DNA of 64,000 bases. Origin: a virus. Where the stretch lies: IMG/VR virus record IMGVR_UViG_3300035664_000005, positions 1 to 64,000 of that record; one strand, written 5' to 3'. Shown here piece by piece: positions 1,528 through 18,092 of this stretch (the first letter of the stretch is position 1; every line of letters begins with the position of its first letter). Below the pieces are notes generated by a model. The model was given only the letters and a program-made list of their open reading frames with translations. It did not search any database and was not told where the DNA came from. Both the position numbers and the translations under genes were made by a program.

Positions 1528-1933
1528 CTATCCATTCCTGTCCTGCGTCTCGTTTGTTGGATCGTTGTAGGAAGTATTCCACTTTTTCTGCGTTGCGGAA
1601 TATCAAACCTATACCGTTATATTTGACTTGTTGTTTGTTGGATCCCATATGGAAAGGTGATTTCGCGCAGGCATCTATGGCTTGTTTGCAGGCGTCTACA
1701 CCGTAGTCGTGGACAGCCCAGCCGATACTTACGACACGATCGGTGTCTAGGATCGCCTTTTTGGATTGCATTGCTTCAACCCAGTAATCCCATATTTCTT
1801 GGATTATGTCGGGATGGATTTTGGAAGCCTTGTCGCCTTGAGTCAATTTCCTTTTTCGTTTAGGTTTATCTAAGTTGTTTACGCCACCGTTCGGGTTGGG
1901 GAACAACTCTTCATTTTTTGAAGTAATCATCAA
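1514..1933 (-). CDS. phage replication initiator/replisome organiser C-terminal-like protein
   Basis: EIWDYW...R...I.....YGVDACKQAIDAC..SPFHMG.N....Y....LIFRN..KVE.F resembles phage initiator C-terminal domains. Confidence 0.5.
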   Translation of the reverse strand: MMITSKNEELFPNPNGGVNNLDKPKRKRKLTQGDKASKIHPDIIQEIWDYWVEAMQSKKAILDTDRVVSIGWAVHDYGVDACKQAIDACAKSPFHMGSNKQQVKYNGIGLIFRNAEKVEYFLQRSNKRDAGQEWIDEQD

Positions 1934-1966: not shown

Positions 1967-2217
1967 GTACTTCCGGCCGGTAATAAGTAATTGGTAGCAA
2001 CGTTGCTCTTAACAAAGAGGAAAGAACCTGTATCGGTAAAAACTTTGGAGAGTGTGAGAACCTTTACCAAACCTTTTCGGACGTTCGTGCAGCCGAAACA
2101 AGATCCGCGATTTTGTCTAGTCGCAGATTAAGATTTGATTATGGATCGCGCGCGAAAGGTTGTATACGCCACCGTGCATGTTAGATGCTTATCTGCGCTT
2201 ACTATTTTATTCGTCGC

Positions 2218-2530
2218 AGTCCCGTGTAGCAGTGGTAAAAGATAGCAGACCAACAGCCCCGTCACACGCACGTTTCAAAAATAAACCACTATTAACGTCG
2301 TATTGTGTCCGACAGTCCCGCGTACCCGTGGGTAACCACAACATGTGGTGGTAACCCGCATGTTGGGGCGGGGCTATCCCGCAAAATGTGGAAGCATGCT
2401 TGCGGGGCTGATAACTGTTGTTAGGATAAAAGTTATCGGCGGGGCTCTGAAGACCCCCATCTGAAAGACTCGTCGTGGTAGTGAAGCGGGGCTACGAACT
2501 CTTCGTCGGGTTGAGTGTTGTAGCCCGCTT
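2218..2530. repeat. convergent array of AG[CT]CCCG(C) half-sites in non-coding DNA
   Basis: Forward sites 2218, 2255, 2314; reverse GCGGGGCT at 2368, 2402, 2439, 2486. Confidence 0.75.
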
Positions 2531-2647
2531 CCTACTTCAACCTAAACCAATTTGAGTTCAGGTTTTTTGTAGGTTGGGTGGTCACGCATGGATCGCGTGA
2601 GGTCGTTGTTTCCGCCACCGTTCAGTTTGTGGAACTTCGGTTTCTTT

Positions 2648-3156: not shown

Positions 3157-3173
3157 TTTATATCCGCCACCGT

Positions 3174-3392
3174 TCAGTTTGGAATAGGGGTTTGTTCGTA
3201 AACCATGTATTCCCCGTCGTTGTTGATCGCGATGCCTGTGACCCAACTGTTGCGATGTTCTGATCCCGTCGGACTGTATGGATCGTCGCCTATTATGATG
3301 CGCGTTTTGTATACCGCGTTAGACATCGCTTCAATACTGTCTTCTGCTTCAACATCTGTTGTCACCATTGTTGTTACGCGATACTTTGCCAT
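3174..3392 (-). CDS. hypothetical protein (MAKYRVTT...)
   Basis: TAATG coupling with 3392..3715; start reassigned to 3392. Confidence 0.6.
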   Translation of the reverse strand: MAKYRVTTMVTTDVEAEDSIEAMSNAVYKTRIIIGDDPYSPTGSEHRNSWVTGIAINNDGEYMVYEQTPIPN

Positions 3393-3715: not shown

Positions 3716-3774
3716 GTCTTATTCTTTCTGATGACATATACGCCACCGTTCAATTTGGATAAAGCCACTTCTGT

Positions 3775-6565: not shown

Positions 6566-6938
6566 TTCTATTTCTCCTCGTCTAGTAGTTGATATGTTTA
6601 TTTGCTTACCCTCACAATATATCTGAGGGGTGTTGCAGAGTTATTTTTAGTAGGTGCTTATTTATTACTAGTATCATTATATACACACCACAAAACAAAT
6701 TGCAACTATCTTCCCAAAAACTTTTACGCGAGATCGTTGATCCAACCCGAAGATCGCGTTTAGGTTTATATACGCCACCGTTCAGGTTAGATAACAATCA
6801 ACTGATGCTAACTAACAACCGTTGCAAACTAGACAGCCCCGCGTATCCGTAGCACCCCGTGCTACAGCCCCGCCCCCTCGCGCGCACGCGCGGGACTGTT
6901 GCAAGCGAACAACTGTTCGCGGGACTACTATCTGCGTT

Positions 6939-7319
6939 ATGACAATTTCACGCACAGACAGATGGCAATACAGGTTCGGGGCTCTAAAACAGTATGCAGA
7001 TCGGACAGGAACTTCGCTTGTCCCTGCAACACAGGTTGAGGTTTATCAGGGGAAGAATGTCGCGGTTGGTGCATGGGTCGCCTACAACCGTCAGCAATAT
7101 CGTCTCAAGGAACTATCAGTCGCGCGACAAGAACAACTTGAAACGCTCGTGGGGTGGCATTGGGACAAACAAAAACCTGGCAGACGCTACGACAAGAAGC
7201 GAGACACAGATATTGCTCGGCGTTATAAAGACGGTGAGCGTGTAGGTGTTATCGCAGATAGTTACAATTTGTCGCGACAACGAGTTCATCAGATCTTGAA
7301 GCAGTTACAAAATGTCTAA
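6939..7319 (+). CDS. helicase-associated (HA) domain + C-terminal HTH protein
   Basis: W..RF.ALK.Y....G...VP.......VGAWV..NRQ......LS..R..QLE.L.GW.WD; C-terminal IADSYNLSRQRVHQI HTH; TACTAT-N7-ATG leaderless start. Confidence 0.75.
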   Translation: MTISRTDRWQYRFGALKQYADRTGTSLVPATQVEVYQGKNVAVGAWVAYNRQQYRLKELSVARQEQLETLVGWHWDKQKPGRRYDKKRDTDIARRYKDGERVGVIADSYNLSRQRVHQILKQLQNV

Positions 7320-7662
7320 TCCCGAGTTTGGTCACGATCACAACAAGCGTGACGCATGGAAGAAGATGAGCGAGTGGTCGCATAGTCTTTCCGATGAAGA
7401 CTTGAATGAATTGTTTAGAGAAGATGAAGATGATTTCTACGATTACGAATTGGAGCGAGAAACAGTGAGCAAACAATTAAGTAAGTTTATTGTTGGGTTG
7501 TTCGGTGCATCGCTCGGTATCGGTGGTATGTCGTTCGTTGTTTATCGTGTCGCGCTCGCGTTGGGTGTGGATACTTTGTCGTTTGGTGAAGCGGTGATCG
7601 TGACCGCAGGTGTTGCTTTCATCCGTTACGCGGACGCAGGAGTAATGAAACAGTTCCGATAA
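7312..7662 (+). CDS. membrane protein
   Basis: Acidic N-terminus and two hydrophobic segments; overlaps upstream stop. Confidence 0.65.
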   Translation: MSNPEFGHDHNKRDAWKKMSEWSHSLSDEDLNELFREDEDDFYDYELERETVSKQLSKFIVGLFGASLGIGGMSFVVYRVALALGVDTLSFGEAVIVTAGVAFIRYADAGVMKQFR

Positions 7663-7793
7663 ACACAGCAGGACGCACCCTTGCGAGTGCGCCCTCTGCG
7701 GAGAAGCCGAAAGGTGAAAGGAGAAGTCCTTTCGTTTCCTCTAGCAATACAGAATAACATATAACCAATATGTTATTCCGAAGCGATTAGGTT

Positions 7794-9284
7794 TTACCCT
7801 AATCGTTTCCCGTTTAATTTTTGATATGTTTCGTTCCAACATCTTGGATACCACTTGGTCGGTTTCTTGCCGACCTTGAGTTGGTTCAAGACCGCGAGAC
7901 CTTGTTCAACATTGAGTGCCATAAACACTTTGTGCTTCAAGACTTCTTTAATGCAATCCTGCGCCAAGATGTCGTGATACCCACCATATTGTCCGTTGTT
8001 GCCAAGACCGTGAACATGACCGTCAGTAATCCAAACGATCGGAGTGGACGCTCGCTTGCGTTGCTTGATCGCCCAACGAATTGCTTCGCCGTCTACGCCG
8101 TTACCGCCGTTGCGTTCAGGAAGTTTGTCTACCATTTTTCCGTTTTGCGCAATGATAAGAAGGTTTGGTTTGACATTGTTTCTGTCTGCTGAATAAACCG
8201 CAACCGTGCAACCTGCTGACGCTTCTGTGATGTCAAGAATATCTTTGTGAGAGAATGACATTGAACCTGAACCGTCAATCAAGACGATACCGCCGTTGCC
8301 TTTCTTGTATCGGTCAAACACTCGCTTCTCGGGGTCTGCTAATGCATTGCCAATTCTGCGAGGGTTGCGACCCATGTTGCACGCTGTTCGCTTGCGACCG
8401 AGACCGCCATGCGCTTTACGAGTAAGTGGAAGTGTGCCGATGATTAGATTGCCCCAACTCGGAACAACACCGCTACCTTTGTCTGCGTCCGTTGGACGAA
8501 CTTTCTTTGGATCTGCTTTCGCAGGTTGATCGGTTGCGCCGTTACCTTTTGCACCGTCTTTCTTTTCTTTTTTAGGTTCTCCTTCACCGTCTTTGGTTTC
8601 ACCCTTTTCGGTGTCACCCTTTTCGGTTTCGTCCTCGTCCTCTTGCGGTGGGTTTGCCAAACGATCTACCCACTCTGCAATGCGCTCTGTGTGCGCAAAA
8701 CCAAACGGTGCTAAACCGTGTCGTGGGTCTACTTCAGTAGAACCGAGTGTGCCTGTCTTGAACGCCTTGACAAACTCTTTTTCAACTGCCTTGATGATCT
8801 CGCGCAATGTTTTCGCCCATGCAGGGTTCACACGCCTTACGCCTGTGATGAAGTCTTTACCACCACCACAGATTGAATACCCAACCGCAATATAAACCGC
8901 TTGAGTCCAATCCGCTTGTTCTGCAATGCGAACGCCTGACGCTTTCTCACTTCCGTCTGCGAGAAGATCAACATCAAATCCTGCTTTCTTGATCAGGAAA
9001 TTAACGCGAACTTCTTCAACGACTGTGAGTGCGCTTTCAGTTGCGATACCACGCGCTATCCACTTTGGGAAATCTTCCGCAGGTGAGAACCTCGCGTGTG
9101 CCATTTCGTGCGCACGGATAACTCGGTCAATCTGCTCGTCACCGACAGGGACGACCATGTGTTTCGTTACGACATTGGTCATCGGTTTGCCACGAACAGG
9201 TGCGCAAGTATCTACACGCCACTCGCCTGCGTCTTTATCTTTACGCCCCAACATCTCGGGGAGTGGTCTAATTTCTGTTTTCAT
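7794..9284 (-). CDS. VWA (MIDAS) domain protein with N-terminal HExxH metallopeptidase-like domain, CobT-like
   Basis: HEMAH; charged linker; IDGSGSM MIDAS; GGNG and ITDG motifs. Confidence 0.8.
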   Translation of the reverse strand: MKTEIRPLPEMLGRKDKDAGEWRVDTCAPVRGKPMTNVVTKHMVVPVGDEQIDRVIRAHEMAHARFSPAEDFPKWIARGIATESALTVVEEVRVNFLIKKAGFDVDLLADGSEKASGVRIAEQADWTQAVYIAVGYSICGGGKDFITGVRRVNPAWAKTLREIIKAVEKEFVKAFKTGTLGSTEVDPRHGLAPFGFAHTERIAEWVDRLANPPQEDEDETEKGDTEKGETKDGEGEPKKEKKDGAKGNGATDQPAKADPKKVRPTDADKGSGVVPSWGNLIIGTLPLTRKAHGGLGRKRTACNMGRNPRRIGNALADPEKRVFDRYKKGNGGIVLIDGSGSMSFSHKDILDITEASAGCTVAVYSADRNNVKPNLLIIAQNGKMVDKLPERNGGNGVDGEAIRWAIKQRKRASTPIVWITDGHVHGLGNNGQYGGYHDILAQDCIKEVLKHKVFMALNVEQGLAVLNQLKVGKKPTKWYPRCWNETYQKLNGKRLG

Positions 9285-9375
9285 TTTGTTTTTCCTTTTG
9301 TCTAGTTGGTTTATATCTCTTGCTTATGGAGACTTGATTACACCCCCACCTTACGGCAGGGGTGTAACACGGTTG

Positions 9376-10104
9376 TTAGACCGCGACCTTGTTGATCGCG
9401 ATTGCGTCTAGGACACTTTCTGCCTGCTTACCAAACACCATGCGTGCGCTCTCTGCGTCACCAAGTGTCTTGCGTAGGTGATCAAACGCATAGAAGGTGC
9501 GGAGTGAGATTCTGCGCTCACCTGCGTCTGCCATGCGAACTGCGTATTCACGCAAGTCTGCCGACAACTTCACGAGTGCGTCAGGGTGTGGTTGGTTTAT
9601 ACGGATTGCTACAGGGAAACGATCTTTCAACGCTTCAGGTAGTTCTTCCATAGTCTCAATGTTCGTGGTCATCACGACACTGAAACCGTCTTTCGGTGTG
9701 ATCGTCCGATTGTTGTCAGGTGATTCCCACTTTGCTGATTCAGGTGAGTCAGTGAATGCGAGAAGTGTTGCGAACACATCTGCGCCTGCTTTGTCAATCT
9801 CGTCAATTACGAGACGACCGCCACGCAAACCGTCACCCTTCCACGCCGATACTGCTTTACCGTCTGTCCAAGACCAACCGCCTTCGCCGTTCATCTTGTA
9901 GTGACCTTCAACTTGTGCGTTGGACATATCCTCTGTGCAGATAAGTCTGAATGCGCCTGCTGTGACATCGCCGTAGTTAAGACCTGCGAATGTCTTGCCT
10001 GTCCCTGGGGGACCGAACAAGATAAGACGATCTACTCCTGCGTTCAATGCGTTTTCTACATCCTGCCAACACTGTGGAAGGATTGTTTTTTGTTCTACTG
10101 ACAT
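9376..10104 (-). CDS. MoxR/CbbQ-NirQ-like AAA+ ATPase
   Basis: Walker A GPPGTGKT, Walker B LVIDEIDKA, TTN sensor, LPEALKDRF, SLR. Confidence 0.88.
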   Translation of the reverse strand: MSVEQKTILPQCWQDVENALNAGVDRLILFGPPGTGKTFAGLNYGDVTAGAFRLICTEDMSNAQVEGHYKMNGEGGWSWTDGKAVSAWKGDGLRGGRLVIDEIDKAGADVFATLLAFTDSPESAKWESPDNNRTITPKDGFSVVMTTNIETMEELPEALKDRFPVAIRINQPHPDALVKLSADLREYAVRMADAGERRISLRTFYAFDHLRKTLGDAESARMVFGKQAESVLDAIAINKVAV

Positions 10105-10199
10105 TTTATTGCCTTTCGTTTTAGGTGGTTAGTATTTTTATTTTTATTGCTTTGGTTATTACACCCCCAACATTACATTGGGGGTGTAACAGGGTTTAG

Positions 10200-10601
10200 T
10201 TACGCTACTTGCGCTTCTGCTGTTGCCTTGCTGTCGGACTTTGCGCCCTTGAGTTCGGTAACACGGATTTGCTCGTATGCGGTGATCGTGGTTACTGCGT
10301 CTGCGACATCTGCTTTGATGACACCAACTTCAACCGCCGACTTGAACTTCTTTCCGTCAATGGTTGCTTTCGTAACCGTCTTGAAAACTTTGTCGGACAC
10401 GAGATCCTTCAATGCTTCCACGCTGTAGTTCGGACGCTCGCCCTTAACGACTGCGACTTTTGTTCCGTCTACGACTGCGTAATCCACGCCTGCTTTTGCG
10501 AGTTCCAACTTGAAACTTGCTTCCGCTTTTGCGAGGTTCTGCTCTGCTGTTGCCAATGCTTCTCGCATTTCCAACACTTGCTTCGCTGTATTTGTAATCA
10601 T
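10200..10601 (-). CDS. hypothetical phage protein (coiled-coil N-terminus)
   Basis: Own promoter 10652-10673; strongly biased codon use. Confidence 0.75.
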   Translation of the reverse strand: MITNTAKQVLEMREALATAEQNLAKAEASFKLELAKAGVDYAVVDGTKVAVVKGERPNYSVEALKDLVSDKVFKTVTKATIDGKKFKSAVEVGVIKADVADAVTTITAYEQIRVTELKGAKSDSKATAEAQVA

Positions 10602-10748
10602 GTTTTTTGCTTCTTTCTATGTTTAGGGATATTTCTAACTTCTTAACCACCACTCTATATGAGGGGTGTAACACGGTTACTTTCTTTGCTATCAGACTAA
10701 CTATCTATGATAGATAGTCTAATACCACTTGTGGGTAAAAAACAACCT

Positions 10749-11021
10749 CTATTTCAAGATTTCTGAAATTGTTTGATCTAGGTTGGTTGCGAACTCTGCC
10801 ACCACGCTGTTCTCGTATTCCTTCATGATCAGGTCGGTGAGACCACCGAACTTGCCTGCGAGGTCTTGTGCCACTACTAGACGGTCACCAAGAGTGTCTG
10901 AACGCTCCTGATCGGTCGTCTCTAACGATTCCGCACAGTCTTTGATGACCTGCCCACCCAACGCGAGATGTATGTAAAACGCCTCGCTCGCTGTGAGTGT
11001 CATTGTGTATTGCTTTTCCAT
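10749..11021 (-). CDS. hypothetical protein
   Basis: AAAGGA RBS before ATG 11021. Confidence 0.65.
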   Translation of the reverse strand: MEKQYTMTLTASEAFYIHLALGGQVIKDCAESLETTDQERSDTLGDRLVVAQDLAGKFGGLTDLIMKEYENSVVAEFATNLDQTISEILK

Positions 11022-11103
11022 GTTGTTTCCTTTCGGGTTGTTTGTTGTTGTATCTCTATTACGCACTGAGCCCCCGAAAGTGTGCGGTCTTTTTTAAGAA
11101 ATC

Positions 11104-11136
11104 TTTTCCACAGGGTTGTCCACAGGATGTGGATAA
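11104..11136. promoter_or_regulatory. three DnaA-box-like 9-mers at 12-bp period
   Basis: TTTTCCACA 11104, TTGTCCACA 11116, TGTGGATAA 11128. Confidence 0.65.
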
Positions 11137-11314
11137 CTCGTTTAGGTTTATATACGCCACCGTTCAGGTTGGAGATCATTTCAGGATCGCCGATCCCCGT
11201 GCGCCCGCGCCCGCGAGCCCCGCGTTGCTTGCATCCTCCCGCGAGCCCCGCGCCACATTCTTGGTGGCGGGACTCGGCACAAAGTAAGGGGAGGCTTCCG
11301 CCCCCCCGTGCAAT

Positions 11315-11458
11315 TTACTTTGCGTCCCTGTGACCCTGTTGGTCTGAGAACCACTGCAAGTCATCATGGTGAATGTCTTGCGCGTCTTCCATCTTTTGGA
11401 ACTGACGCTCGCGTGCTTCTGCTTTCTCAAAAATCTTTTTGAGTTCCGCTTCTGTCAT
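11315..11458 (-). CDS. small protein (47 aa, MTEAELKKIFEKAE..., not in ORF track)
   Basis: AAGGAGA RBS, promoter 11516-11537. Confidence 0.7.
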   Translation of the reverse strand: MTEAELKKIFEKAEARERQFQKMEDAQDIHHDDLQWFSDQQGHRDAK

Positions 11459-11643
11459 ATTTTTTCTCCTTTCTTCTGTGTAGGTGGGGCGATTGCCTCA
11501 CACTTATATAACGCAAGATTACGGCAAGGGTGTGACATAGATAAATCTAAAAATATTTCTAGATCGGCGTCACACTTTATATGACCATGTGCGTTATATA
11601 GATGTAGGGCAACAACGCACTACCAAAGCGTTAGGAGACGCAG

Positions 11644-11787
11644 TTGGAAATCAACTATGAAGCAATAAAAGAAATGACCCGAGCGTTGAAGCAAGAAATT
11701 GCACGAAACGGGATCAACGAAAACAATTCGCAATGGGTTCACGAAATGCGAGTTGCGATTGAACTTCGTGAAAGCGGTGTCTACTAA
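11644..11787 (+). CDS. small protein (47 aa, MEINYEAIKEMTRAL..., not in ORF track)
   Basis: AGGAGA RBS at 11633, TTG start, terminator downstream. Confidence 0.6.
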   Translation: MEINYEAIKEMTRALKQEIARNGINENNSQWVHEMRVAIELRESGVY

Positions 11788-11800
11788 CACCGCCAAGAAG

Positions 11801-11832
11801 ACCCCAACTCGGAAACGGGTTGGGGTTTTTTG
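11801..11832 (+). terminator. intrinsic terminator
   Basis: ACCCCAACTC-GGAAAC-GGGTTGGGGT followed by T run. Confidence 0.75.
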
Positions 11833-11960
11833 TGCCCTAGCCCCGCAGGCTGATGGTGTTACCGCACAGCCCCGCGATCCGATGCGCGACGCGGGACTGA
11901 GACAAAAGAAAACCCGCAGAAGATGTTTGGTCTCCTGCGGGTTGATGAAGCGTCAGGTGT

Positions 11961-12203
11961 TTAGTAGACCCCGAACGATATTCCGTCTGATGTCATCCCG
12001 AACAATGCACCTGCGTCGTTTCCTTCTGTGTCCATTGACGGATACAGAATTGTTCCGCTTGACAGGACGAGAACCATAGGGATTTCTCGTTTGCGCCAAC
12101 CTTCTTTGTTCATTTCTTCTTTTGTCATCGGACGGATGTCAATGATTGTTGATCCGATCATTGAGTCGTCTACGGTCTCTGCTTCGTATGCTGTTTCACT
12201 CAT
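11961..12203 (-). CDS. hypothetical phage protein (PSMDTEGNDAGALF motif)
   Basis: G..I.DIR.MT..E....GW and S.D.EGN..GALF pattern of a recurrent phage family. Confidence 0.75.
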   Translation of the reverse strand: MSETAYEAETVDDSMIGSTIIDIRPMTKEEMNKEGWRKREIPMVLVLSSGTILYPSMDTEGNDAGALFGMTSDGISFGVY

Positions 12204-12245
12204 CTGCTTATCTTTCTGTTTGGGTTTATATGAAGCGTCTCGTTG

Positions 12246-12497
12246 TTACACGGACGCTTCCACAGGTGATTTGATGTTTGCTAGTTCGCGCTCCAACTCC
12301 GCGCCTTCAACATTGTTCATGAGGTCAATCAAATTGTCCAACCAATTTGCAACCGATGCGGGTATGGGTGTCGTGTTGAGATAGTCGGTGTATTTGTTCA
12401 ATACGCCATCTATTTCGTTTGCTAATCCTGCACCTTCAACATTGTTTGTGATGTCAAGGATTTCTATGACTAGGTTTAGGTAACTTTGCTTTATCAT
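12246..12497 (-). CDS. hypothetical protein with internal duplication (NNVEGAxL x2)
   Basis: AAAGGA RBS; promoter 12530-12551. Confidence 0.7.
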   Translation of the reverse strand: MIKQSYLNLVIEILDITNNVEGAGLANEIDGVLNKYTDYLNTTPIPASVANWLDNLIDLMNNVEGAELERELANIKSPVEASV

Positions 12498-12554
12498 TTC
12501 TATTTCCTTTCGTTTAGGTTTATATAAATATCTTACTGAAGCGGTGTAACAGGG

Positions 12555-12692
12555 TTATCCCTGCCACCTGAAGTTACGACACGCCTTCTTGTCGTTCTTC
12601 TTCCGCTTGTCTGCGACACGCTGTGCCTTCAGGATGTTCCTGTCTGCGAACGCCTGACGCTCTTCTGCCGACCATGATCTATCTATTTTCAT
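12555..12692 (-). CDS. small basic protein (45 aa, not in ORF track)
   Basis: TAATG coupling to 12692..13168; open frame ending ...KKACRNFRWQG. Confidence 0.55.
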   Translation of the reverse strand: MKIDRSWSAEERQAFADRNILKAQRVADKRKKNDKKACRNFRWQG

Positions 12693-13168
12693 TATGCCCT
12701 TCTCCTGTTCAGTTTCCATTCTTGACAACTATGTATCGCTTGCTCGTCTACTTGCTGTTGGTTCATATCTTTTGTAATCAACGGACGGTATCCGCATGAA
12801 CCGCACGCAACACCGAGATACTCGGTGATACCTTGCGCTACCTGATATGCGTGAACCGTAGTGTTGCCGTGAGTTCTCTCGTTGAGATAAACGGTGATGA
12901 ACACTTCACAGTTCGCGCAACCGATGATCTTGACATCTTTGCCGTCAGTCGGTGCTTGTTTCGCAAAGAAGTCAAACTTGAAGTGATTACAAGTTTCGCA
13001 CTTGTCGTCAAGTTTGCGCGACTTCGCAACTTCTGTTTTGCCTTCAGTTATAACCGTCCACTCTTTTGGGAGTATTCCTTTTTTTGTTGCTTGCGCGATC
13101 AAGTGATTACGCACTTGCCATTCCGTGTAAGGCTTGGCAACTTTTTTTACTTTTTGCTTCTTTGCCAT
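12692..13168 (-). CDS. hypothetical multi-CxxC Zn-binding protein
   Basis: CETC, CANC, CGSC; AGGAGA RBS; promoter 13222-13243. Confidence 0.75.
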   Translation of the reverse strand: MAKKQKVKKVAKPYTEWQVRNHLIAQATKKGILPKEWTVITEGKTEVAKSRKLDDKCETCNHFKFDFFAKQAPTDGKDVKIIGCANCEVFITVYLNERTHGNTTVHAYQVAQGITEYLGVACGSCGYRPLITKDMNQQQVDEQAIHSCQEWKLNRRRA

Positions 13169-13312
13169 TTTTGTCTCCTGTCTAGGTTTAGTTGTTTAGG
13201 TTTATCTAATTGCTTACTACTACTATAACGCAACGGTGTTGTAAATATGTGTCATTTTTAGATATATTTTTTATTATATCCGTAATATATCAGGGGCATA
13301 ATATCCCCACCT

Positions 13313-13333
13313 TTATCCACACCCTGTGGATAA
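13313..13333. promoter_or_regulatory. inverted pair of perfect DnaA boxes
   Basis: TTATCCACA-ccc-TGTGGATAA next to AT-rich tract ~13255-13290. Confidence 0.7.
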
Positions 13334-13785
13334 CTTCACCTGAGACAGAACTGCGATCGTGTCTCAACATCGCCGTTGTGGTTTATATACGCCACCGTTC
13401 AAGTTGGGGAGTGTTGATGTCATGATGTCATGATGTCGGATCGCCCGATCCCATAGCCCCGCGCCATCCGTCGCACGGCGGGGCTCACAAGTCTCGCATC
13501 CGTTCGCGGGGCTGTCGCCGTCGGATCTTCGGTTTGTTGGGATAGTGTTGGGATATGGCTATGCCCTTCAGTCCCAAGCATTCCACTAACTTGCAGATCG
13601 GCGAAGTTATTGACGCGCTCGCGCAAACTGAGCCCGATCTATTTGGCGAAGGTGACGCGACACTAATGCCCGTGCAATACTCTGATCGTCTCGCGTTAGT
13701 GATATGCGATCGTTCGCTAGGGGAGCCCATAAACGCTAATAGCCCGCCTGCCTAACGGCGGACGGGCTACGACACTGCGGACTAT

Positions 13786-14028
13786 TTACTTATTGCGTTG
13801 CGACTCTGCCCATAGGTGACGGAATACGAACGCAGGTATCGCGCTCCCGTCATCCGTGAAGTAGTAACCATTGTCAAGTGTTGAATGATCGGGGATAGTT
13901 ACGATCTTACGCCGAGTAGATCTATGCGCATACCAATATCCAACGATAAAAATATTGCGATCGCTTGTCGTCTCCCATTGCCAACGCGACGCGCCGACAT
14001 ATCCCTTATAGGTGAGTTGAGTGCTCAC
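13786..14028 (-). CDS. hypothetical protein
   Basis: GTG start overlapping upstream TGA; hairpin downstream at ~13740-13770. Confidence 0.55.
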   Translation of the reverse strand: MSTQLTYKGYVGASRWQWETTSDRNIFIVGYWYAHRSTRRKIVTIPDHSTLDNGYYFTDDGSAIPAFVFRHLWAESQRNK

Positions 14029-14273
14029 GCCTGCACCCAACCTTGTGGTGTGCGCATTGCCCATAGGTATGGTTGGACTTCAACGATGAGATCCGTGAGT
14101 GCTTGCGACACTTCATCCCGACTAGTTGCCATGCCTGCAATGAACTCTTCGTATCGTGCGTTTATGAGATCGTCTACGATCGCACCGATAACGCCGATAC
14201 CCGTTGCGCCGATGCCGAGATAATTCTCTGCAAGGACTTCGCTAATAGATACCGTCTCAATAATCTCTGACAT
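14025..14273 (-). CDS. hypothetical protein
   Basis: AAGGAG RBS before ATG 14273. Confidence 0.65.
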   Translation of the reverse strand: MSEIIETVSISEVLAENYLGIGATGIGVIGAIVDDLINARYEEFIAGMATSRDEVSQALTDLIVEVQPYLWAMRTPQGWVQA

Positions 14274-14379
14274 AAATTGCTCCTTGTGTAGTAGTTGGTT
14301 GTAATCGGCTTGCGCCTTGTGCCTAGTTGGAATTGAATCCCACGCCGAACGCGCTAGGCGACTCACCTAAGTGAGTGTG

Positions 14380-14829
14380 TTAGATCGCGACCGCTTCGCT
14401 GTAACGAAGTGTGCCATCGCCACCCATCGCGATCTCAGTCGCGCGTGCCCAAAGGTTGCCCACGACTTCATTACCGCGTGCCCACGAAGTTAAACATCCG
14501 AGAACTTCAGTCTCAAACTCCGCGAGTGCTTTATCCGAGTATCGCTTAACCGACTTACGGATAAGAGTTGCGAACGGATAATTTACGCGATCGTAAATAC
14601 CAACCAATTCACTTGTCTGATCGTAGTGTCGCAACGCGATGGACGACATGAGTTGCTTATTATCCGCATCGTGCCAAATTGTGATACGCACTAAAGTGCC
14701 CATTGGTCTGCCATCCACTTCAACCGAGTCACAAGTCGGACTCTTAAGTGTGTAGGTGATCTCGCGATCTTTAACCTTGCGTGTCGCTTGCGCTAACACT
14801 GTATTTTGACTAACAATTAAATTACTCAT
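14380..14829 (-). CDS. hypothetical protein
   Basis: GGGAGA RBS; promoter 14877-14898. Confidence 0.75.
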   Translation of the reverse strand: MSNLIVSQNTVLAQATRKVKDREITYTLKSPTCDSVEVDGRPMGTLVRITIWHDADNKQLMSSIALRHYDQTSELVGIYDRVNYPFATLIRKSVKRYSDKALAEFETEVLGCLTSWARGNEVVGNLWARATEIAMGGDGTLRYSEAVAI

Positions 14830-15466
14830 TATTTATCTCCCATGTCTAGTTGGTTTATGTTTATTACTTACTGTCTATATTACGCAACGGGTGTTGCATA
14901 GTGTGACATTGCCATTCTGCAATATCGCGTATCCGCTATATCCGTGATCCGATATCTACGATCCGATATACGGTTTATATGCGCTACCGTTCAGGTTGGG
15001 GACTTGGATCGGCGATCCGCCCGCGCTACGCGCCCGCCCGTGCCCGCGAGCCCCGCGCGCTAAATGGGGGCGCGGGACTGTCAAGTTTTTTGGGGCAAAC
15101 AGTAGCGTTTGCAGTGTCGCCTTACCCCCCTGTGACACATATGAGCCCCGCGTGTTTACACGGGATGCGGGGCTGTGGGCAGAAAAGCCAGAGCCGCGGG
15201 TTGGGGAAGCCGCTGAGCGGCTTCGCCGTCGGTATCTGTATCTGAACTGAGACAATTACACAATCCTTCCGAAGTCGGAATAGTTGTGACGATCGGGCTT
15301 AGAAACAAAACACCCTCGTAGTTAGAAAACTCGCGTGAGAAGTAGCGTCCATGATGTGTGAGTGGCACGGTGCGCTCAACCTAGATAGCCGTGAGACGCA
15401 CTACAAGCCCCTATAAACGCAAATAGCCCCCACCCCGAAGGGTGAGGGCTCGCGCCTTGCACGCGC

Positions 15467-15925
15467 CTAGTGAGGGACTCCGTTCCAATAAGGTCGCGGT
15501 TCAGTCTCCGAGTAATCGTCCTCCGAAACCTGCGCGCGAACATTCTCAATGTTCGTGAAGTGCGTGACGCCTTCCGCCGTCTTGAAACCGACCTTGACCA
15601 CGCCGTAACCGTCCTCCTCGGGTGCGACCCAAAAGACCTCGCCGACCGTGCCTTTAGGAACTTTGCGCCCCTTGAAAACCTCAACGGTTTGACCCTTGAC
15701 GACCTTGCCGTCCGCGATCGCCTGCGCGAGACGATCCTCCTCGTGACGGAGGATTTCCGCCCAACGCGCGACCTGCGCCTCGGTGTGCCTGTGTGGTTGT
15801 TTCCAACGACCCACGCCACCCTCGTATACCTGACCTGCGCGCTCCGCGAGGTAACGCACGCCATTGCGGTTGATGTCCCAAAACACCTCCGCACCGCACC
15901 CGCGACAAGTAGTTAATTTGCTCAT
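15467..15925 (-). CDS. hypothetical protein: N-terminal Zn ribbon + KOW/SH3-like C-terminal domain
   Basis: CRGCG...H; KGQTVEVFKGRKVPKGTVGEVFW; AAGGAGG RBS; promoter 15958-15979. Confidence 0.75.
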   Translation of the reverse strand: MSKLTTCRGCGAEVFWDINRNGVRYLAERAGQVYEGGVGRWKQPHRHTEAQVARWAEILRHEEDRLAQAIADGKVVKGQTVEVFKGRKVPKGTVGEVFWVAPEEDGYGVVKVGFKTAEGVTHFTNIENVRAQVSEDDYSETEPRPYWNGVPH

Positions 15926-16009
15926 ATGCCCTCCTTGGGGTCTAGTAGTTGATACACAGATTACGCACGGGGTGTAACAAAGTGTGACTTGGATAAACCT
16001 AAACGGGGA

Positions 16010-16066
16010 GACGGTCATGCCGCTTGGTTTGACGGTCATGCGGCTTGGTTTGACGGCGAAGCCGCT
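16010..16066 (+). repeat. 21-bp tandem repeat, about 2.7 copies
   Basis: GACGGTCATGCCGCTTGGTTT / GACGGTCATGCGGCTTGGTTT / GACGGCGAAGCCGCT. Confidence 0.75.
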
Positions 16067-16466
16067 CTGGCTCCACTTGCTATCTATGGCTTGATTTTGT
16101 GTATGCCCATAGCCCCGCAAACCGCGTATCTACGCGGGACTAGCGAATTGCGGACCGCATACTTTTTGGGATCGCCGTGCTGCTGAACGTTCAGAAAAAA
16201 CTCACAAAACGTGCAAAAACGTCACTTTTTGACGTTCTTCAGAAAAACTAAATTTAGTGTCAAATTTAGACTTTTTTAAAAGCCTTATGTTGTAAGGGTT
16301 TTATGGAATGAGTTTTTGGGGAACTTCTGAGCCAACACGAAAAACCATCAAAAAGAACAACTTTTGAAAGATCCGGCTGCCAGGTCCCACAATTTCGGGC
16401 AGGTCTTTCTTCAGGATGCTCGGAAGTCCCGTTGGTGTATCAGTTTGATACCCGTTTTAACGGGAC

Positions 16467-16697
16467 TCAGAAGAGAGTTGGGGCATCATCAAAGGCGTTA
16501 CGCGACTCAGTGCATATTCTGTGTGCATAACCAAGAGGGGTTGAAGGGTTGCGTGGCGCACCAATGTAACGCCCGTTGTTGTGTTCTACCCAAGCCATCA
16601 CCTTCACACAATATGAAGTGTTCACCGTGTCAAACTCAATATTACAGATGGAGCAGGAAACTTTCACGATCCGATCATACTCGCCGAAAGTCCGCAA
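16467..16697 (-). CDS. hypothetical Zn-binding protein
   Basis: CSIC...HRIC. Confidence 0.5.
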   Translation of the reverse strand: MRTFGEYDRIVKVSCSICNIEFDTVNTSYCVKVMAWVEHNNGRYIGAPRNPSTPLGYAHRICTESRNAFDDAPTLF

Positions 16698-16718
16698 TAC
16701 AAAGCGGGGATTATTTGG

Positions 16719-16880
16719 TTAGTTGTCCACGCCGACGGTTACGAGTTGTTCTGTTGGGGTTTGTAATTCACACAACATACGGAGGTCTAAAAGTAGATCA
16801 ACCATCTCCGAAGATGCGACAAGTTCTCGCCCTGAGATGGTTCTGATTGTTTTGTCTATGAGTTCAATGGTGGGTGTCAT
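16719..16880 (-). CDS. small protein (53 aa, MTPTIELIDKTIRTISGRELV..., not in ORF track)
   Basis: AAGGA RBS and ACTAGAC leader. Confidence 0.6.
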   Translation of the reverse strand: MTPTIELIDKTIRTISGRELVASSEMVDLLLDLRMLCELQTPTEQLVTVGVDN

Positions 16881-17057
16881 TAAGTTCCTTGTCTAGTTTA
16901 ATAGTTTATCTTAATTTATTCATAGAACGGTTTCGGTGGTCGCTCTTTCGGGTTGTTGCGTCCGAACCTGCGTATTTGATACAACGCAAAAAGAATTGGG
17001 ACACCGAAGAACGCCACCAAGACCATCTTGATAGTCAAAAATATACCGACTGTGCGT

Positions 17058-17270
17058 TTATTCATGCTCACCGACGAGGTTTAACGCTTCATCTATTTGC
17101 ATGGATGTCTTGATGGAATGGTCGCCGTCATACATGACAGTCACATAGTTTGCGCCCTGTGAAGGGTCTTTCGCAAGGTCGCAAATCTCTGCGTATGCCT
17201 GCGTAATTGCGTCTATGTGGTTATCTGCGTCGTAGATCATTTCCCAACGGACTAGGTAAGGTTTGGTCAT
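17058..17270 (-). CDS. hypothetical protein
   Basis: ATGA coupling with 17267..17479. Confidence 0.6.
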   Translation of the reverse strand: MTKPYLVRWEMIYDADNHIDAITQAYAEICDLAKDPSQGANYVTVMYDGDHSIKTSMQIDEALNLVGEHE

Positions 17271-17479
17271 GCGAATGCGTCTACTTGCCACTTGAACATT
17301 GGTTTGACACCGAGTTCATCATTTATGGTTCGGTTAGTCACCTCAACATCAACCTTGTATTGCTCCAAGTATGCGAGTTCTTCTGCGAGTTCCATCTTTG
17401 CGTTCTCTATTTGTGAACGAAGTTCATAAACTCGTTTTGATGTTGTCTCAAATGTGCGCTTCCGTTTTCTCAGTTTCAT
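17267..17479 (-). CDS. hypothetical coiled-coil protein
   Basis: AAGGA RBS; promoter 17516-17537. Confidence 0.65.
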   Translation of the reverse strand: MKLRKRKRTFETTSKRVYELRSQIENAKMELAEELAYLEQYKVDVEVTNRTINDELGVKPMFKWQVDAFA

Positions 17480-17547
17480 TTGTTTTCCTTTTTTAGTTGG
17501 TTTATGTTGATTGTTACCTTAATTGATGGGTGTAACAAAGTGGTGGA

Positions 17548-17814
17548 TTAGAACGCTTGTTTTTCTGCCCTGAAAGACTCAGGTAGTTTTAATCCGCTTT
17601 GTGCATGAACGATCATGCTTTCTGCGTTGTATAGAATCTCACGAAGATCAACCAATGTTTTGATGTGAAGTGCCGAACGCTGATTGTTGTCGCGCGCGAC
17701 TGTTTCACTGATTATCGTGTCAATCGTAAGTGCTAATGCTTTGCTGATACGACTAAGACTTGCTGAGTCCTCATCAAATATTTCTGCTAAAGATTGCTGT
17801 CGTGCTTCTGTCAT
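17548..17814 (-). CDS. hypothetical protein
   Basis: TTGCTT-N17-TATAAT promoter at 17889-17861. Confidence 0.7.
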   Translation of the reverse strand: MTEARQQSLAEIFDEDSASLSRISKALALTIDTIISETVARDNNQRSALHIKTLVDLREILYNAESMIVHAQSGLKLPESFRAEKQAF

Positions 17815-18092
17815 TTATTATTTACCCCTTTCAGAGTTCTAGTATTTATCTAACATACCCATTATATACGAGTCTTAGTTGAAAAGCAACCTTAAAAAAA
17901 AATCTATATCCGCCACCGTTCAGGTTGGGGAACTTTGGTGCGATGCCTGCGTGTTGGGTGAGGGGGGGTGTCCCACTTCTGACTTCTGAGCCCCGCTCCG
18001 CTTCTTCACTTTTTTCCTTGGCGGGACTAAAAGACTTGCAAATGTTTGGGAACTCAGATAAACTAAAAAGAAATACTAGAAAAAGGAGTTTT

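Follow-up and report, generated by a model that had tools for sequence, protein, structure and literature searches.

In uncultured phages the early region is largely made up of orphan genes with no known mode of control. The early region considered here lies in a window of 64,000 nucleotides – the first 64 kb of the 100,945-base IMG/VR contig IMGVR_UViG_3300035664_000005 (completeness estimate 71%) – the source of which, judged by its genes, is an uncultured actinobacterial phage of ~140 kb. An initial annotation of the window described a composite element repeated five times, in which the promoter region of a leftward gene, DnaA boxes at two of the loci, an asymmetric motif (A) and a GC-rich dyad (B) follow one another in the same order. 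The question raised by this arrangement is whether it is a genuine signal and, if so, what reads it and to what effect. Our data indicate that the pairing of A and B is a real control signal, whose parts most likely, as far as the sequence tells, are bound by regulators of the phage and are not injection stops.

Motif A is a 27-nt box, the centre of which reads CGCCACCGT on the + strand. A degenerate 22-mer that represents the motif has nine matches where 0.01 is expected, and the whole contig holds ten forward copies and no reverse copy, all within 1.9-17.9 kb. Dyad B (AGYCCCGC and GCGGGRCT, 15-16 nt apart) occurs at eight places, against an expectation of zero; long-spacer variants lie at 17989 (spacer of 24 nt) and 16425 (27 nt), and several dyads are accompanied by extra half-sites. 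Five times A, on the + strand, is followed 65-93 nt later by B, exactly as had been described. From left to right, a composite begins with a leftward gene and the promoters of that gene; there follow DnaA-like boxes (two cases), A, a small dyad with GATC (three cases), B and mostly a rightward promoter. The parts also occur alone: the dyads at 11868, 15144, 16111 and 16425 have no A of their own, and five copies of A that the initial annotation lacked (1882, 2167, 2613, 3165 and 3741) have no B and crowd the final 2 kb ahead of the replication genes. Direct repeats within 1.5-18.2 kb are all of 49 nt or less, so that the composites, with their unrelated spacers, are not recent duplications: it is the architecture that is conserved, as the earlier description had it.

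Copies of A are found in intergenic spacers, at gene junctions and, in one case, within a genuine open reading frame (ORF), which argues for a DNA site rather than a part of some fixed promoter geometry. In that ORF (2542-2673, where A is read as KLNGGG) nucleotide conservation at the motif exceeds the need of the protein; the product is basic, 43 aa long, holds the motif in frame, and its ORF runs into the 3' end of gene 2648-2995. We rejected a coding motif because the frame differs among copies and one relative has a non-synonymous change inside A, and a Shine-Dalgarno or start-associated element because the distance to the start codon varies from 6 to >120 nt. A further motif, GTTTAGGTTTAT on the + strand, lies just ahead of the ribosome-binding sites of leftward genes at 1854-1882, 12508-12536 and 13190-13218, and also directly adjoins three copies of A, including those near 6757 and 11139.

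The hypothesis of a real pairing was further examined in relatives, located in IMG/VR by exact search with the A core, and in a family set of 66 loci found by search with a neighbouring AAA ATPase (30-97% protein identity). Five relatives carry 7-11 copies of A each, on one strand, and in the four larger contigs the 8-11 copies are clustered in 16-18 kb. The complete 27-nt box is restricted to the closest clade; the family consensus comprises an invariant part of 14-15 nt with clade-dependent flanks, and the core ACGGTGGYG (read on the ATPase strand) occurs family-wide, 419 times forward versus 26 in reverse across the 66 loci, being missing from the most distant of them. In the sense of the ATPase strand a B half-site lies upstream of the core, by 40-70 nt in clades 1 and 2 and by 8-33 nt in clade 3, and 161 of the 291 distinct sites have a half-site within such a narrow distance on this side, whereas hardly any have one on the opposite side. 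The objection that the order of A and B is no better than chance – one set out in advance, when the composite was first described – fails because the order is conserved in relatives. The pair recurs in a family of lake phages and is conserved between phages whose marker ATPases are just ~60% identical.

In these comparisons the composites stand out as conserved islands among cassettes that are replaced or missing in relatives. This raises the possibility that A and B are kept mainly as homology linkers for the exchange of early cassettes between co-infecting phages and have no regulatory role of their own. A homology breakpoint does lie at the edge of A (13390), one cassette gene has a homologue that is inverted in clade 3 with the orientation of A unchanged, and dispersed repeats in a recombining genome are expected to be uniform in orientation. 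But many breakpoints are located elsewhere, the fixed order and spacing of A and B and the fixed spacer of B point to protein recognition, and the core that is invariant across clades is just 9-15 nt, too short for homologous exchange and yet conserved far above its flanks; as a full account the proposal is improbable. As conserved islands A and B would nonetheless be homology patches for exchange of the intervening cassettes, and by analogy with the proposal for T4-type PeSL cassettes (PMC2839356) they probably also act as modular-exchange linkers; for A, with so short an invariant core, a linker role alone is insufficient. Site-specific cassette exchange, one of the roles first suggested, finds no backing: neither tyrosine (PF00589) nor serine (PF00239) recombinases, nor any integrase or resolvase, were found in three genomes, namely this phage and two relatives that are 97-100% complete by CheckV.

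A critical issue is what the composites separate. Substitution patterns in comparison with four relatives define a block of leftward genes from 0.47 to 17.8 kb; the synonymous fraction alone cannot tell a frame from its antisense partner, and ORF length and stop codons in the relatives were used as well. Rightward genes are few: a gene for an HA-HTH protein at 6939, with a second gene to 7662; a gene of 47 aa (11644-11787), which has a strong terminator of its own; probably the ORF at 13555-13755; and an operon from 18093. The leftward units have SigA-like promoters of their own between A and the start codon (for example 17889-17861 and 6705-6676), and a second class of leftward promoter carries a TGTTACACCC box. 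Intrinsic terminators of leftward transcription lie directly to the right of B (11307-11288, 11943-11911 and 15450-15425), while three of the five loci, perhaps four, have a rightward promoter immediately after B, that of the HA-HTH gene included. From the end of B to the -35 there are just 2-8 nt at 6.9 and 18.03 kb, and the promoter at 18.03 kb is kept in all five genomes. With leftward promoters to the left of A, terminators to the right of B and mostly a rightward promoter after B, each of the five loci is, on its sequence, a divergent control region where early transcription units meet. The claim that a conserved multi-part cis-acting system partitions the early region is therefore upheld by composites that sit at unit borders, between terminators and promoters, as islands among variable cassettes; the leftward promoters between A and the start codon, the adjacency of B to rightward promoters and a family-wide linkage to the HA-HTH gene go beyond what had been described.

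The second promoter class, found between 5900 and 18730 (for example at 14898, 9369 and 18705), consists of a TGTTAC box, ten bases and a -10; its geometry is that of PafBC 'sigma adaptation' promoters, the box differs, and several of the boxes also form a hairpin's 5' arm. Many clade 3 units include a leaderless gene that runs on the opposite strand; A comes shortly after the terminator of this convergent gene at 48 of 209 sites, compared with 6 of 209 random controls.

Given this setting, A could be a phage-specific (middle-type) promoter on the - strand, with B as an upstream terminator or activator site, the whole forming a PeSL-like cassette. In accord with this, A is co-oriented with leftward genes and upstream of them, comes after terminators or hairpins, and resembles phage-polymerase promoters in length and conservation. 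However, the -10-like hexamer beside the core has no T at -7, and TANNNT is enriched at no fixed offset on either strand (292 sites), findings upon which we also rejected A as a SigA promoter and, since no -10 is found at a constant spacing, as a box of the -35 or -26 kind. SigA-like promoters already serve the leftward genes downstream of A, one copy of A is 7-9 nt from a conserved ATG and another lies within an ORF, and in clade 3 the motif would fire antisense into the convergent gene. Sigma region 2 was not found in the three genomes, nor was a T7-type RNA polymerase, the latter a weak result given that control genomes were also without matches. A promoter at A is weakened by these tests and appears doubtful; if true, it would point to an unrecognised transcription factor or polymerase.

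The nature of B is suggested by its variation. The spacer between the 7-mers of B is 16-19 nt in 127 of 149 distinct dyads, and at the third arm position of the 149 the four combinations occur in the proportions expected of independence, that is, without covariation; folding energy upstream of A is equal on the two strands and shows no strand preference. The absence of arm covariation and of strand preference disfavours a selected RNA hairpin and favours a dyad in duplex DNA for a dimeric protein. From these patterns of sequence, B may well be a dyad operator on duplex DNA for a dimeric phage regulator. An apparent G-U pattern had pointed to a hairpin in RNA of the - strand, a candidate rejected on the same data, and canonical terminators were rejected in clade 3, where a strict hairpin-plus-T test was passed by 2 of 209.

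The same observations bear on the broader possibility that the element acts as RNA, whether for antitermination in the manner of nut or ops, for processing, or as a small RNA. The order of linear box and hairpin recalls boxA/boxB, copies of A inside the leftward operon are transcribed, and the A core is loosely like what we take to be the ops element. Yet besides strand-neutral folding and arms that do not covary, Rfam covariance models found no match in 1-20 kb at E up to 1, and the copies in composites, being placed between terminators and promoters, fall outside the expected transcripts. Action as RNA is thus very improbable.

Which protein might recognize A? The only gene linked to A throughout is that of the HA-HTH protein, present at 41 of 44 loci with the A core versus 4 of 22 loci without it. 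At most loci a copy of A lies 94-188 nt upstream of the gene. Clades 1-3 have both A and B ahead of it; the clade without A has only B. The predicted structure comprises two small helical domains and a conserved linker: the N-terminal HA domain is much less conserved than the recognition helix (sigma-region-4-like), which shows no variation in clades 1-3 but two changed positions in the clade that lacks the core. It is this pattern – a helix invariant where the core exists and altered where it is lacking – that makes the HA-HTH protein the best candidate binder. With its two domains such a protein could, on the predicted model, recognize an asymmetric site of some length, as is the case for the cluster A repressor (PMC9283540). 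Homologues are annotated 'Mor family' by JGI; a search of PDB sequences with the protein returned nothing.

The HA-HTH gene also stands in close relation to B. Half-sites overlap its core promoter in every clade, including that lacking A, and the last half-site of composite 1 (6919) touches its -10 (6926-6931); as a sequence arrangement this is the classic layout of an autoregulated operator. The start appears to be the ATG at 6939 and not that at 6963, since a TANNNT lies at 6926-6931, 7 nt before the former, in a layout kept in relatives. Within the -35/spacer region of this promoter (6906-6919) there is a palindrome resembling a LexA (SOS) box, GAAC-N4-GTTC with matching flanks, which is shared by clade 1 and some of clade 2. 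Loose matches to the LexA box number four in the entire contig, where 1.3 are expected, and the extended form is found only here.

Taken together, these data lead us to favour – with a probability of about 0.4 – a model in which B is a dyad operator and A an asymmetric site for a conserved phage protein (candidate HA-HTH) that forms a polar boundary or roadblock for leftward transcription. In this model the leftward genes are served by SigA-like promoters of their own, on the left side of A, and leftward transcription arriving from the right-hand unit stops at the intrinsic terminators just before B. With its two arms of 7-8 bp and a fixed gap of 15-18 bp, B would serve as a double-stranded operator for a dimeric phage regulator. 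A, being asymmetric with an invariant core and clade-specific flanks, would probably be read by a conserved phage-encoded protein, of which the two-domain HA-HTH protein is the best candidate, another conserved early protein being the alternative. Once bound, A would act as a polar block or insulator against leftward transcription in the manner of a stoperator; it would insulate units from one another and throttle distal genes, including the replication genes behind five copies of A.

Several observations sit uneasily with this model. The distance from A to promoters ranges from 21 to ~85 nt, and the B at 11.87 kb, between convergent terminators, has no nearby promoter. The linkage between the HA-HTH gene and A is confounded by phylogeny; moreover, the universal link of that gene to B could equally mean that the HA-HTH protein binds B. 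A fold search with the HA-HTH model gave only weak, generic HTH matches and did not place the family. Since no integrase was found, a stoperator role of the kind known from lysogeny is not expected, and a role for A in early shut-off is one that we only infer. A more embracing proposal is that A and B are polar DNA signals of a large family of freshwater actinophages, the HA-HTH protein reading A and a second factor or the initiator reading B, so as to set boundaries of transcription and replication or to couple the host regulators DnaA and LexA to every early unit, a logic for which we know of no counterpart among described phage systems; this we consider rather unlikely.

Table 1. Coordinates of A, B and associated features in the window.
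Feature	Position	Strand	Remarks
Motif A, no B	1874-1900	+	At the 5' end of, or just upstream of, the O-like initiator gene 1514-1933
Motif A, degenerate	2159-2185	+	Flanks the B half-site array
B half-site array	2218-2493		Three forward and four reverse half-sites, inverted; in the 600-bp non-coding stretch 1934-2541
Motif A	2605-2631	+	Within the conserved 43-aa leftward ORF 2542-2673
Motif A	3157-3183	+	Overlaps the stop codon of one leftward gene; ATG of the next 7-9 nt away
Motif A	3733-3759	+	Between two leftward genes, beside a small hairpin
Motif A, composite 1	6765-6791	+	
B, composite 1	6835-6926		Dyad 6866-6897; outer half-sites 6835 and 6919
HA-HTH (Mor-family-like) regulator gene	6939-7319	+	Apparently leaderless
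Three DnaA-box-like 9-mers	11104-11136		Between leftward promoters and A
Motif A, composite 2	11147-11173	+	
Small GATC-containing dyad	11183-11197		Between A and B; others near 13437-13452 and 15005-15019
B, composite 2	11216-11274		Extra half-site 11216; dyad 11244-11274
B without A	11839-11898		Between convergent terminators of the 47-aa rightward gene (11644-11787) and the next leftward unit
Inverted pair of DnaA-box-like 9-mers	13313-13333		Perfect; kept in four relatives
Motif A, composite 3	13382-13408	+	Homology breakpoint versus relatives at its edge
B, composite 3	13455-13513		Dyad 13455-13485, extra arm 13506; just upstream of the putative leaderless rightward ORF 13555-13755
Rightward ORF, putatively leaderless	13555-13755		-10 at 13543-13548
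Motif A, composite 4	14974-15000	+	
B, composite 4, two dyads	15049-15174		15049-15079 and 15144-15174
B pair	16111-16467		Dyad 16111-16141, AT-rich non-coding stretch with palindromes, long-spacer variant 16425-16467
Motif A, composite 5	17903-17929	+	Leftward SigA-like promoter 17889-17861 nearby, its -35 at a distance of 21 nt
B, composite 5	17989-18064	+	B 17989-18028, then the rightward promoter (-35 at 18036, -10 at 18059) of operon 18093

A different role for the same sites is suggested by the replication genes. Gene 1514-1933 has a match among PHROGs to phage replication initiators (O-like), limited to the C-terminal part of the profile, and gene 1099-1527 has a weak match to helicase loaders. 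Adjoining the O-like fragment and the loader-like gene is the largest B array, of seven half-sites (2218-2493) flanked by copies of A, and this layout of initiator, loader and array is kept in clades 1 and 2. The 600-bp stretch that holds the array (1934-2541) is, from its sequence, a candidate origin or strong operator cluster. DnaA-box-like inverted repeats are found at 11.1 and 13.3 kb only, where DnaA boxes had first been reported. Within the second of these composites, between A and the GATC dyad (13412-13435), are three tandem 8-nt units of the TGATGTCA type, in place of which relatives have a related repeat or a palindrome.

These features would be explained if A and B were replication sites – iterons for the initiator combined with recruitment of DnaA – and the composites auxiliary origins or copy-control (handcuffing) sites. 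To the DnaA-box-like repeats and the A-flanked array may be added arrays of 3-6 boxes after every B in the distant clade, and an AT-rich stretch that adjoins B at 16.1 kb. An iteron-type origin of the lambda O kind has tandem initiator-binding repeats beside or within the initiator gene, together with an AT-rich stretch. Nevertheless, the sites are kilobases apart and not in tandem, DnaA-like boxes are present in only two of the five composites, the initiator match is C-terminal only and that of the loader weak, and GC skew, because it follows gene direction, is unable to locate an origin. On balance a replication role seems unlikely. The AT-rich stretch (16142-16420) is non-coding, contains several palindromes, lies between two B-type dyads and is close to where cumulative GC skew is lowest. 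In the clade that lacks A (L076 190-19050 and L073) the succession of terminator, B dyad and then 3-6 DnaA-box-like 9-mers occurs eight times in 20 kb; such arrays may titrate DnaA or employ it as a regulator.

Repeats, palindromes and DnaA-like boxes in an early region also bear a loose likeness, and that only, to the injection-stop region of T5, and staged stops of DNA injection were among the first suggestions for these sites. This suggestion gained no support. No association with a genome end or terminal repeat was found in the contigs, all of which are classed as linear and free of end repeats; the position of the block differs among them (1.9-18, 29-45 and 32-50 kb), and the 10-16 sites per genome include some inside operons and one inside an ORF. 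Injection stops are accordingly the least credible reading of the element.

As to the phage itself, gene products in the window include an HK97-type capsid protein, a class II ribonucleotide reductase, a primase-helicase, an SNF2 helicase, a DNA methylase and a WhiB protein. The nearest capsid matches are to Brevibacterium and Gordonia phages (47-49% identity), hence the assignment of the host to the phylum Actinobacteria; a nucleotide search found no near relative among cultured phages. The first 900 nt of the window have an extreme strand composition, rich in A+C on the + strand (GC skew -0.39, AT skew +0.38), and the sign flips near 900, where rightward and leftward genes meet. The leftward gene 15467-15926, a stretch of 58% G+C in a genome of 45% G+C, is present in only some relatives and, by its composition and distribution, looks like a recent acquisition.

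Several known systems share parts of the A/B arrangement. One likeness is to the stoperators of cluster A mycobacteriophages (L5 gp71 type), asymmetric sites of >12 bp in many dispersed copies within short intergenic spaces (PMC9283540, PMC6550527): in both, the copies have one orientation relative to transcription and occupy the intergenic spaces of actinophages, and a monomeric two-domain binder fits both, although here the binder is predicted. Stoperators are bound by the immunity repressor of the phage, which blocks elongation. Here, in contrast, the sites do not extend beyond a single early block of 16 kb, each A of a composite has a GC-rich dyad as its partner, the orientation of A is fixed relative to the leftward block and in relatives does not flip with local gene direction, and with no integrase found and no known immunity repressor the HA-HTH protein is only an inferred candidate binder.

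A second parallel is provided by the SAS/ESAS of cluster K, an asymmetric repeat of unknown function in 11-19 one-way copies, about half with an extra imperfect inverted repeat upstream at a variable spacer, and with subcluster-specific flanks (PMC3203893). The one-way asymmetric repeat, the inverted repeat upstream and the group-specific flanks are all shared. However, SAS sits 3-8 bp before start codons and includes the ribosome-binding site (PMC3203893), whereas the distance of A from start codons is variable – only one type of copy is 7-9 nt from an ATG – and the dyad is 65-93 nt off, on the promoter-distal side. The PeSL cassettes are similar as composite intergenic punctuation of early orphan genes, with stem-loops or terminators, promoters, and conserved islands that favour modular exchange. 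They differ in having a plain sigma-70 promoter within the cassette (PMC2839356), where here SigA-like promoters are separate from A, itself without a usable -10; as for a stem-loop that ends upstream transcription beside the promoter, intrinsic terminators lie just upstream of B (- strand), B itself showing neither covariation nor strand preference.

Other comparisons are more distant. Activator sites of Mu Mor/C (PDB 1rr7, 9l0x) likewise combine a small phage HTH regulator with a dyad just upstream of the -35 of controlled promoters, but the N-terminal domain of HA-HTH is HA and not the Mor dimerisation domain, the structural match is weak, and B is centred further upstream than -43.5. Integron-like attC sites come with a site-specific tyrosine (or serine) recombinase encoded alongside the array, and neither family was found in the three genomes. 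The 5' half of the A core is alike at eight of nine positions to the -26 element of PafBC promoters together with what we presume to be its extension. Yet the strict GTC of that element is GAC in all 295 A sites, and the -10 is missing from its place ten bases downstream, for which reasons A was rejected as a PafBC promoter; the RecA-NDp promoters of Actinobacteria comprise a GTC-containing -26 element, ten bases and TANNNT (PMC8635444).

The A/B pair provides a handle with which to delimit early units and find their regulator, and allows the use of host DnaA and LexA by these phages to be asked about. If A is indeed a polar roadblock in a lytic phage, then control of the stoperator type would reach past the temperate phages of cluster A. 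By these likenesses the A/B pair belongs with stoperators, SAS/ESAS and PeSL among the repeated signals that punctuate the early regions of phages.

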